A DNA stretch of 19,624 nt from Fimbriimonadia bacterium. Lineage in GTDB: Bacteria > Armatimonadota > Fimbriimonadia > Fimbriimonadales > JABRVX01. Shown piece after piece: positions 12,721 through 19,620 of this stretch. Positions within the stretch are counted from its first letter, which is position 1; each line of letters begins with the position of its first letter. The DNA lies in the NCBI GenBank assembly GCA_041483895.1, contig JBGPGO010000031.1, positions 1 to 19,624 of the forward strand, in the 5' to 3' direction. The notes under the pieces are model-generated. The model had not been told where the DNA came from. It ran no database searches and saw nothing but the letters and a program-made list of their open reading frames with translations. A program made the translations under genes and the position numbers.

Positions 12721-15324
12721 TTAGCCCTCGATCACGATCTTCGAAAAGTCCGCAATCCGGATGTACATCCCGGCGATTGCTGCCAGCAGACGAAGCCGGT
12801 TATCCCGAATCTTCTCGTCATCCACCATCACCATCACTTTGTCAAAGTAGGCCCCGATCGGACCGGCCAATTCTTCGTGCAGCTGAGCGAACGCCGGATG
12901 ATAGTCGCCCTTTCGGCATGAATCCGAAAAGAACGATTCGATGCCGATCACCACGCTGTGAAGTTTGCGCTCTTCATCCAACTCCATCAATCCAACATCC
13001 ACGGAGGCCAACGCGCCGGCGATGTCTTCCGGAGAGGGAACACCGCCCGCCGCGATGCCTTTTTTGACCGCCGCCGCCGCGATGTTTCCCGCGCGCATGG
13101 AGGTCCGGGCCACATCCACAAAGTCAGGCTTCTTGGACAGTTCGGTTAGCAGTTCCAACCGCGCGGCGACTCGCCACGCATCATCCCATCCCGCGCCAAG
13201 GACCGCTTCCAGCAGATCCTTTCGTGCACCTTCATACAGCACATCATAGCGACCGAGCGCCAACTCTGCCATCGCTCTCCGGATGGCGTCCTGCGCAAAA
13301 TCATGGCCCTGCTCGCCATATTCAGCGCATGCCCATGAGAGCATCATCCCGATCGGCGGGAACGATTGATCGCTGCCAAAGGCCTGCCCATTGAGAATCA
13401 GCATGTGCACCGCGCGCCGAAGCCCGAACGGATCGCTCGACCCAGATGGCACCAGGCCTAAACCAAGGTACCCGCAAAGTGTATCCACCCGGTCCGCCGC
13501 CATCAGGATGCGCGCCAGCTTCGCGCCGAGACAGGCCGGCGGTTCCGTCGGGTGGTAGTGCGTCCGAATGGCCCAGCAGACCTCGTCCACCTCGCCATCG
13601 CGCCGCGCGTACTCGCCGCCCACAATTCCCTGCAGCGCCGGCAGCTCCACCACCAGGCCGCTCGCCAAATCCGCCTTCGCCAGCTCCGCCGAGCGCCGGG
13701 CCAACCGCCGCTCCTCGTCGCTCAACCCCAACGATGACGCAACCTTGTCGCACAGACCGATCAACCGCCCGGTCTTGTCCGCCAATGTCCCCAGCTTTTC
13801 TTGGAAAACGATCCGATCCAGCCGCTCGGCGAACCAAGAAAGCGGATGCTTGCTGTCGTCATCGAAGAAGAACTTAGCGTCGGCAAATCGCGCGCCGAGC
13901 ACCCACTGGTTGCCCCAAATCACAGTCTCCTCATCGCCGCCGTTTCGGACGCTGACAAATCGATTGGTTATCTTCCCATCGGCATCGCGAATCGGCAGAA
14001 ACTTCTCGTGCTTCTTCATCGCGACGATCAGCACGTCGGGCGGTAGCGCCAAATACTCTTCATCAAATGTCCCCAAGCTCGGCATAGGCCACTCGGTCAG
14101 ATACACATTCTCATCCACGTTTGCCTCGTCCAGGTCCACACCGGGATCGATGGCGAGCGCGGCCTCCTCGATCATCCGCTTTCGGACGGTCCCGTCAAAT
14201 TCGACACGCGACTCGCGTAGCGTTGTGGACAGGCTAGTGAAGTCTCGGACCAAGGATCTCTGTTGTCCAGAAGGTACCATCTTCTCCAGCTCAGCGTAAA
14301 TGCAATTGACGTGCAAGCTCAGATCAAAATTCTGTAGGTGCTTGTGGTTTTCACAGATTCGATCCGCATGGACTGGGTTTCCATCTTTCAGCGCAAATAT
14401 ACATCCACAGCAGGCGGGGTACCAAAGTTGCTCTGGCCTGCCATGTGTCGCCGCAGCGGCAGATACATTTCCGATCCTCATCACACCAGAACCAGGAGGC
14501 GTCGTAATCTTTACAATGACATTAAATTGCTCGCTAGGCATATCTACAAGCTGTGCAGCATAGCAATATCCGGTAACACCGCCCGCTATGGTCGCCGAGG
14601 AGAGTTCCTTTCCTCCGCTACAAATCGCTACCCTGGCAATATCCGATAATGTGTTTTCTGGAACGTAGAGGTGGATGTCAATCGTGTCGGTTTCTTGTGA
14701 CACGGAAATTCGTTGTATCAATGGGAACTCGAGCATCTTGCCCGCTTCGATGAGTAGAGGTGCTCCGAGTACCCGCTTGCCGCATGTATAGCTATCGGAG
14801 GCCACACCTTCAATATCAAACGGCACAACCGACCCGCCGAGCAAGGCCACGATCCAGCGAATCGGGCGCGCGAATCGCATCCGCCCCTCGCCCCAACGCA
14901 TGGACTTCTCAAAATTCAGCGCCCGGATCGATTCCGGCAGAAGTTCGGACAAGACCTCGGCTGCGGGCCGCCCGACGATCTGCTTGGTCACCCAGACATA
15001 CTCGCCCTCTTGCCGCACCTGATCCGGCTGCACGTCGTTGCCTTTGCAAAACCCAATCAGCGCGGGCGTCGGATTGCCCGAAGCATCAAAAGCCGCCGAA
15101 ATGCGCGGGCCCCTTTGTTCCTTCTCACTATCGGGTTGCCTCACCGCAACATCTTCCACAACTACAATCAGTCGCCGCGGCGTGCCATAGCACCGTGCCG
15201 ATCCGTGAGCCAAATTCGACTCGTCCAGTCGCTCAACAACCTCATCCCGAAGCTGATGAAACGCCTTCTCGACAAACGATGCGGGCAGCTCCTCGCAACC
15301 GACCTCCAAGAGCAGCTCAGGCAA
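12721..15324 (-). CDS. glyS: Glycine--tRNA ligase beta subunit carrying a ~165 aa insertion
   Basis: [69 protein letters not shown] and IRDNRLRLL motifs; 867 aa against the usual ~690-700. Confidence 0.96.
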
Positions 15325-16204
15325 TGGCGGCCTCCCGCGCTTCCAAATATTTCACGCAGCAGGCCCGCACCCGCCCCCTCACCCGATTGATGTACACGGC
15401 CCGCTCGGTCACCGAAATGCTGCCGCGCGAATCCAACAGATTAAAGGCGTGAGAACACTTGAGCGCCATGTCATAAGCCGGAGCGATCATCGGACCGTCC
15501 GGAGTCTCGATCTCGATGACACGCCGACTCTCCGCCTCATAGATATCGAAAAGTTTGAACAGCATCTCCGTGTCGGCATGGTCAAAATTGTAGTAGTTGT
15601 TTTCCAACTCCGCCTGATACTCGGCAAATTTGTAGGTCACGGGCTCCCCGTCCGGTCCAAAGTTCCAGACCAGATCCCAGACGCTGTTCTTTTTCTGCAG
15701 CATCATGCAAAGCCGCTCCGGTCCGTATGTGATCTCCGCTGACACGGGCTTGCACTCGATCCCGCCCATCTGCTGGAAAAAGGTGAACTGGGTGATTTCC
15801 GTCCCGTCGATCCAGACCTCCCAGCCCACGCCGCTCGCCCCCAGCGTCGGCGCCTCCCAATCGTCCTCTACCAGGCGGATATCGTGTAGTAGCGGGTCTA
15901 TGGCGATCTCCGTCAGGCTGTTCATGTACAGGTCCACGATGTTGTCCGGTGATGGCTTCATGATCACCTGATATTGGTAATAGTGCTGCATGCGCATGGG
16001 GTTGCGCCCATATCGGCCGTCCGCCGGCCGCCGGGAAGGTTGGACGTAGGCGACGTTCCACGGATCAGGCCCCAGGCAGCGCAAGGCGGTGGCAGGGGCC
16101 ATCGTGCCGGCCCCGACCTCCATGTCGTACGGCTGGACGATGAGGCAGCCAAGACGGCCCCAGTATTGCTGTAATTTCAGCAGCAGGTCTTGAAAAGTCA
16201 GCAT
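15317..16204 (-). CDS. glyQ: Glycine--tRNA ligase alpha subunit
   Basis: [55 protein letters not shown] and SH.FNLLD.RG motifs. An alternative GTG start lies at 16210. Confidence 0.97.
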
Positions 16205-16234: not shown

Positions 16235-16399
16235 TCGTAGACGCGGGTCGTCTTGGTGGAGGTTCCCTCGTGCCGGCAACCAAGACCAGCGTGGCAACCT
16301 TGCATCCATCGATCCCGGCCGCCACGAACGGAAATCGTAGACGTGGGTCCTTCCGGTGGAGGTTCCCTCGTGCCGGCAACCAAGACCCGCGTGGCAACC
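16235..16399. repeat. Two 65-nt direct repeats (period 100 nt), REP-like hairpin elements starting with GTAG
   Basis: 16235-16299 and 16335-16399 are 59/65 identical, with a 33-nt identical core. Internal inverted repeats are GTCTTGGT/ACCAAGAC (copy 1) and ACGTGGGTC/GACCCGCGT (copy 2). Confidence 0.85.
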
Positions 16400-19544: not shown

Positions 19545-19620
19545 ACTCCCTCCCCCGCTTGCGGGGGAGGGCTGGGGGTCATCAAAAACTCCCTCCCCCG
19601 CTTGCGGGGGAGGGCTGGGG
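19545..19620. repeat. Two identical 33-nt palindromic REP-like repeats (period 43 nt)
   Basis: ACTCCCTCCCCCGCTTGCGGGGGAGGGCTGGGG at 19545-19577 and 19588-19620; stem CCCTCCCCCGC/GCGGGGGAGGG. Confidence 0.9.

Follow-up and report, generated by a model that had tools for sequence, protein, structure and literature searches.

How does the beta subunit of an essential synthetase come to carry, inside one of its domains, a block of protein that has no counterpart in any of the relatives compared? The window, by which we mean the whole 19,624-nt stretch of DNA that was analyzed (contig JBGPGO010000031.1 of the Fimbriimonadia assembly GCA_041483895.1), contains the glyQ and glyS genes of a heterotetrameric glycyl-tRNA synthetase (GlyRS), and it is the product of glyS, GlyS, that is interrupted in this way. 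The features discussed here are collected in Table 1.

Table 1. Features of the glyQ–glyS locus, in window coordinates; residue numbers refer to GlyS.
Feature	Position	Strand	Basis or remark
glyQ, alpha subunit, intact	15317..16204	(-)	PF02091, 432 bits, full length
glyS, glycyl-tRNA synthetase beta subunit, 867 aa	12721..15324	(-)	PF02092, 510 bits, and DALR_1; TTG start overlaps the end of glyQ
Eroded host motif (S-x-GHRF-x-x-P in relatives) directly before the insert	14758..14799	(-)	Column losses at 180–188
In-frame orphan insert, residues ~190–356, net 165 aa	14257..14757	(-)	Ends uncertain by ~5 codons
Beta-strand-rich part, residues 201–292	14449..14724	(-)	Six strands, low-confidence model (pLDDT 38)
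Cys/His-rich part, residues 301–341 (C305, C306, C308, H319, C324, H327, H329, H338, C341)	14302..14424	(-)	
Host sequence resuming (VRDF...VEFD), of the family's own type	14194..14256	(-)	Sequence as in P0007, the closest homologue, and in family relatives

Against all 40 relatives, GlyS aligns in two matching blocks, about residues 1–187 and 359–867, and the middle is without counterpart. A first-pass annotation made from the letters of the window had described an in-frame insert of ~165 aa, with homology stopping near residue 189 and resuming near 357, and both the size and the limits hold up. The insert is absent from all 119 close homologues (674–709 aa) as well, and the corresponding stretch of orthologues is only about 5 residues long. 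Since the MRWG and EWP motifs lie 269 residues apart in GlyS and 104 apart in 113 of the 119 homologues (range 103–107), the net insert is 165 aa. Rather than being conserved across its relatives at genome-typical GC, the insert is thus confined to this lineage.

The reading frame of glyS is free of stops from end to end, and its openness through the insert, also pointed out earlier, is hard to obtain by chance: Markov simulations at the insert's composition gave an open frame of 167 codons in 4 of 20000 cases, and each of the remaining five frames is broken by 3–9 stops. Codon periodicity in the insert is seen in the glyS frame only, with G at 0.34 in position 1 and 0.18 in position 2, and its amino-acid composition scores above 99% of random stop-free sequences. 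On a protein-likeness scale where real protein scores 0.049 and random sequence −0.050, the N-terminal half reaches 0.022 and the Cys/His half −0.033. Promoter-like sites within the insert are at chance level (3, against 1.5 ± 1.2 expected). The base composition is also distinct, with a GC content of 49.1% against 60.4% in the rest of glyS; the insert is therefore lower in GC as first noted, but the initial figures of ~43–45% against ~68% overstated the contrast, having been taken from extreme lines (60-nt lines of the insert range from 42 to 58%). GC3 gives a clearer signal than overall GC (0.50 against 0.72), and the internal drop in codon usage caused by the insert ranks first among the 1602 long ORFs of the genome. 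The best bounds of this low-codon-usage segment are residues 185–356, and codon usage begins to fall at residues ~171–189, upstream of the insert.

The insert is real and not a product of misassembly. All or part of the stretch occurs in 18 sediment metagenome runs, with no RNA run among those listed, and 7 of them contain at least half of its words. Contigs were compared at the junctions for 4 of these 18 runs, and among the pieces listed, the junction at 14257 is crossed by contigs of X1, X2 and X3. X7 contigs cross that at 14757, as do those of X1, which extend exactly 31 letters past it (X2 reaches only 21), and the whole insert is spanned by one X2 contig. None of the listed pieces from these four runs shows a differing letter or a joint that skips the insert. 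Coverage of both junctions, which had been named as a point to check, therefore comes from contigs of several runs, to be read in the light of the facts that contigs drop rare variants, that X1 may be the source sample and that the runs may belong to one campaign.

The host gene appears functional as far as its conserved positions allow one to judge. GlyS belongs with the beta subunits of heterotetrameric GlyRS, having PF02092 and a DALR-type anticodon domain, an adjoining glyQ and the key residues of the family. It retains 136 of the 144 conserved columns in an alignment of 29 orthologues, which themselves lose 0–12, and four of its eight losses cluster at residues 180–188. According to sections of PMC8464048, W150 and R159 of E. 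coli GlyRS beta serve in tRNA binding, and R326 and D329 contact ATP; by alignment, all four are retained in GlyS, as W144, R153, R479 and D482. In a tree of 36 sequences from which the insert had been removed, GlyS lies within the family clade (support 1.0) on a branch of ordinary length, indicating vertical inheritance of glyS. The adjoining glyQ is 74–79% identical to that of two family relatives, which share the gene order glyQ–glyS. The genome has a single copy of glyS, no dimeric GlyRS scored over the cut-off in the 95% complete assembly, and GlyS thus appears to belong to the sole glycine-charging enzyme found in this sediment bacterium. The tRNA genes form an ordinary set, including three tRNA-Gly with G1 and U73; at G000:C10:46245-46330, tRNA-Phe(GAA) is called a second time, at 86 nt, which is longer than usual. 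One unpublished genome (G036) is included among the 40 genomes counted, in the alignment of 29 orthologues and in the comparison of AlaRS given below; the conclusions do not depend on it.

By alignment, the insertion site is the loop after the GHRF motif in the B1 domain, at E. coli residues ~193–197. In sections of PMC8464048, this part of B1 is described as two short hairpins and two helices against one face of the B1 sheet, and we infer that the loop is surface-exposed. GHRF reads GKRV in GlyS, and all of the 119 homologues have GHR; the His of the motif is missing from two solved enzymes too, those of T. daxensis and of a plastid. When a 152-aa query spanning the junction was run against 400 other genomes of the phylum, 210 matched. 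At least eight genomes had two matches to the query among the matches listed, and all eight were inspected. In two of these (G256 and G228, at L080 and L081) this loop of GlyS carries unrelated inserts, of ~18 and ~26 aa respectively. A contig break, a second copy or a duplication farther along accounts for each of the remainder, and no other large cargo was found at the loop among the inspected matches in the phylum sample. The ~18-aa insert of G256 looks repeat-derived. With the site empty in 40 of 40 relatives, an intact host and short unrelated inserts in the same place, the B1 loop is a permissive site, in agreement with the initial proposal that a foreign-looking coding segment is tolerated in a surface loop. 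As a separate observation, 190 of the 401 genomes in the phylum sample, whole families included, gave no match to the GlyS query and probably use a dimeric GlyRS.

To trace the insert, we searched for it in protein, genome and metagenome collections. With the insert alone, a word-indexed search of 5.8 billion proteins (candidate lengths 91–293 only) returned 17 candidates, none credible, and within GlyS-sized proteins of the same collection only GlyS itself was recovered among 1375. A library of 1.84 billion representatives, through which alone proteins longer than 1518 aa were covered, yielded GlyS and four weak repeat proteins (E 1e-4 to 6e-4), again none credible. Two of the 227 genomes of the class matched, both at E near 0.008 with internal stops and neither credible, and the single locus obtained from the metagenome contigs overlies a histidine kinase gene and matches in the wrong frame. 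Viral contigs, GTDB genome contigs, phages and plasmids held no credible homologue, nor was there a credible match in Pfam, NCBIfam, PHROGs, PADLOC or PDB sequences. The ESM Atlas offered no usable match (0.76 for the N-terminal part; recognition 1956, below the mark of 2300), and a six-frame search of the genome itself found no paralogue (best E 0.10). GlyS with its insert is on record from one contig only. The stand-alone or phage homologues that the first-pass annotation proposed to look for were therefore not found in protein, phage, plasmid or viral-contig searches, and of the proposed horizontal acquisition it is the differing composition that stands: since neither donor nor homologue was found, it is by composition that the block is called foreign.

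Two leads concern the nature of the insert. A single-sequence fold of it reaches a pLDDT of 38, too weak a model for a fold search, with a best Z of 3.8 and no viral match at E 0.001, and a second model, from a three-sequence alignment (pLDDT 37), is too shallow to show even the host fold and is uninformative. The strand pattern of residues 201–292 is alternating, and this part aligns at 33% over 96 aa with a single repeat of the Big_13 type, but the score of 38 bits falls short of significance in a library of 1.8 billion proteins; the 18 bits obtained with a profile of the same protein's repeats are circular. Neither Ig nor zinc families of Pfam match the insert, and we treat an Ig-like sandwich as a lead. 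The second lead is the Cys/His string ending in 13-CENHKH, which is found as described, at residues 301–329. Nine of the insert's 13 Cys and His residues fall within 41 residues, a clustering with p about 0.01 against shuffles in a window chosen after the fact. The insert holds 7 Cys, more than the 1.2% of the proteome predicts (p 0.004) but ordinary for translated random DNA of the same composition (p 0.25). The metal site first proposed here, lying in the less protein-like half, is accordingly reduced to a weak candidate.

We favor, at a probability of about 0.58, the reading that a captured foreign coding segment is translated and tolerated as a passenger in the permissive loop of GlyS. Roughly 495 bp of foreign protein-coding DNA would have joined glyS in frame, in this lineage alone, entering at the loop that follows the GHRF motif of B1, and the block would be translated within the beta subunit and remain there, with the neighboring motif relaxed. 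The synthetase would still work because the residues contacting tRNA and ATP lie elsewhere and are retained. A stop or a shift of frame anywhere in the block would knock out a gene that is essential and present only once; host selection would therefore keep the frame open, and the block would for that reason require no function of its own. Fast local evolution could produce the same composition signal. A neutral block of 165 aa might also be expected to shrink by deletion, and no deleted or variant form was seen in the 4 runs compared, whose contigs would drop rare variants.

The strand pattern and the Cys/His cluster could instead mark a folded, selected domain. The add-on would then consist of a beta-sandwich and a small Zn-binding Cys/His unit that give GlyRS a new surface, with partner binding, a shield against a phage or toxin protein, or metal or redox sensing as its proposed roles. 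We consider this unlikely, though it survives better than any other alternative: the block is domain-sized and protein-like, its strands are predicted consistently in two models, two of the four weak library matches are Ig-like repeat proteins, Cys is enriched over the proteome, the adjacent motif is remodeled and the AlaRS of the same genome also bears a low-GC3 insert. Set against these points are a Cys count that translated random DNA would also give, a Cys/His half that scores nearer to random sequence than to protein, the low confidence and Z of the model, and the lack of Pfam matches to Ig and zinc families. Also against it, no collection searched yielded a homologue of the insert in which conservation could show. 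A broader version, in which selection led this lineage to equip GlyRS with a folded and previously unseen beta-sandwich and zinc module, alongside the insert-bearing low-GC3 patch of AlaRS and as part of a wider bacterial refitting of synthetase surfaces with captured domains (for phage or toxin defense, or for a new partner), strikes us as more doubtful again.

It is improbable, to a further degree, that the glyS of an unsampled, lower-GC relative supplied the block as a ready-made cassette, GKRV included, through homologous recombination, a route compatible with either a passenger or a function. The fall in codon usage ahead of the insert would fit such an exchange, as would the low-GC3 patches in other core genes of the genome (AlaRS 271–540 and aconitase 601–750). 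The glyS flanks, however, have a family-typical GC3 (0.59 against 0.56–0.67, and 0.70 against 0.74–0.78) and a sequence of the family's own type, and the at least four loci recovered with the junction query are, among the matches listed, all empty and all with GHRF.

Patches, inserts and repeats occur elsewhere in the genome as well. Its AlaRS (G000:C16:32513-35455, (-); L039/L047) is 981 aa long against 903–904 in family relatives, and includes a single-copy orphan insert of ~53 aa (residues ~385–441) inside the patch at 271–540, where GC3 is 0.46 against 0.76–0.82 in relatives and identity drops to 46–57% from 66–69%. A second AlaRS insert, of ~29 aa (607–637), is derived from a multi-copy repeat. 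In aconitase (G000:C14:21090-23819, (+); L044), an insertion-free stretch at residues 601–750 has a GC3 of 0.52 against 0.75–0.82 in two of three relatives and is possibly a mosaic segment. A motif survey of the other synthetases caught some of them only. Internal codon-usage drops mark a membrane pyrophosphatase-like ORF (G000:C24:17854-20646, (+)), an ORF of unknown product (C13:9349-12078, (+)) and a glycoside hydrolase-like one (C1:495360-498542, (-)), all of which may hold inserts or patches. Apparent repeat-derived in-frame stretches are present in genes that we named by eye as a DnaE2-like polymerase, a HemN-like protein, a large unknown protein and ClpB (G000:C8:64721-69253, C5:46740-48167, C11:38398-41607 and C26:21222-23867). 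Within the window, a 65-nt sequence without an Rfam match occurs twice in direct orientation (91% identity, spacing 100) at positions 16235–16399, directly upstream of glyQ, with two weaker copies elsewhere in the genome, and positions 19545–19620 hold two copies of a 33-nt GC-rich hairpin repeat that has 67 BLAST hits in the genome.

Removal of the block as an intron or intein, which would restore a normal beta subunit, is very improbable. C181 precedes the block and an Asn-Cys pair, N340–C341, lies near its end, yet excision at these residues would take out the GKR motif and put 18 residues in the place of the 12 found in orthologues, such that this lone pair fails to restore the orthologous sequence and no splice residues stand at usable positions. 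Within the limits of HMMER's filters, no HINT or intein family of Pfam or NCBIfam matched at E up to 10; a group I or II intron is opposed by the lack of an Rfam intron match at E up to 5, by an RNA folding z of −0.55 and by codon periodicity in the host frame. An IS, MITE or palindromic repeat was likewise rejected, since the insert is single-copy and has neither terminal repeats nor a target duplication; with nothing marking mobility, the mobile in-frame passenger that had been entertained is set aside.

Slighter still are the prospects of a decayed homing endonuclease (HNH or His-Cys box) whose in-frame insertion altered its own target site. The block adjoins a conserved motif that is altered, and contains the pattern H-x4-C-x-N-x2-H-L, which arises in 29 of 100000 shuffles and was chosen afterwards. 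Against a profile of 80 phage CxNPxHL-type HNH domains the insert nevertheless scores −0.4 bits, which ranks it 350th when set among 2000 shuffles and level with its own reversed sequence; its score with a mixed HNH_3 profile is −1.1, hhalign assigns a probability of 0.6%, PF13392 and PF05551 find nothing in the genome, and no profile of an HNH or His-Me finger nuclease matches with the catalytic His and the metal-binding Asn/His in register. Elsewhere in the phylum, HNH_3 domains lie within open frames of 1500–2100 aa (L102, L103, L104, L107) that are probably inteins. An assembly chimera or a dying gene, to which the record from one contig and the possible identity of X1 with the source sample might point, has a negligible probability, given that contigs of other runs cross both junctions with zero differences and that the conserved host gene has no back-up in the assembly.

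The locus shares with known heterotetrameric GlyRS its glyQ–glyS pair, the domain order B1-B2-B3-HD-anticodon and the retained tRNA- and ATP-contacting residues. It differs in the change from GHRF to GKRV and in the 165-aa block inside B1, unseen in solved structures or in the homologues listed. Lineage-specific segments in synthetases are already known, as sections of PMC387263, PMC9908026, PMC10464925 and PMC5388404 relate. Like synthetase insertion domains (the YbaK-like domain of ProRS, Ins1 and Ins3 of human GlyRS) and segmentally variable genes, the GlyS insert is a variable segment of more than 70 aa between conserved parts; those segments, as far as the relevant sections describe them (PMC387263), are family-wide, similar in length and in several cases of known role, whereas the GlyS insert occurs in one species and its orthologous site is empty, with ~5 residues in place of a similar family-wide length. 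Inteins, too, sit in frame beside a conserved motif of an essential enzyme, but the GlyS insert is without splice-junction residues at usable positions and without a HINT match.

Rickettsia palindromic elements and intragenic REPs are in-frame palindromic repeats in proteins. They likewise amount to translated DNA tolerated in the loops of housekeeping proteins, and such repeats are found in other genes here; the GlyS insert, in contrast, is much longer, single-copy and non-palindromic, and has coding periodicity. Full-text literature searches, in which subscription journals were largely absent, turned up no description of a GlyS beta subunit with an insert the size of a domain. According to sections of PMC8464048, B1 cannot be deleted without loss of the tetramer. 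Although the weight of a single species with no homologue found is limited, the locus indicates that the B1 domain of heterotetrameric GlyRS can bear a domain-sized graft, adds, together with the AlaRS insert of the same genome, to a recurring pattern of synthetase inserts, and provides both a naturally occurring point at which to engineer insertions and a case in which the entry of orphan domains into essential enzymes can be tested cleanly.
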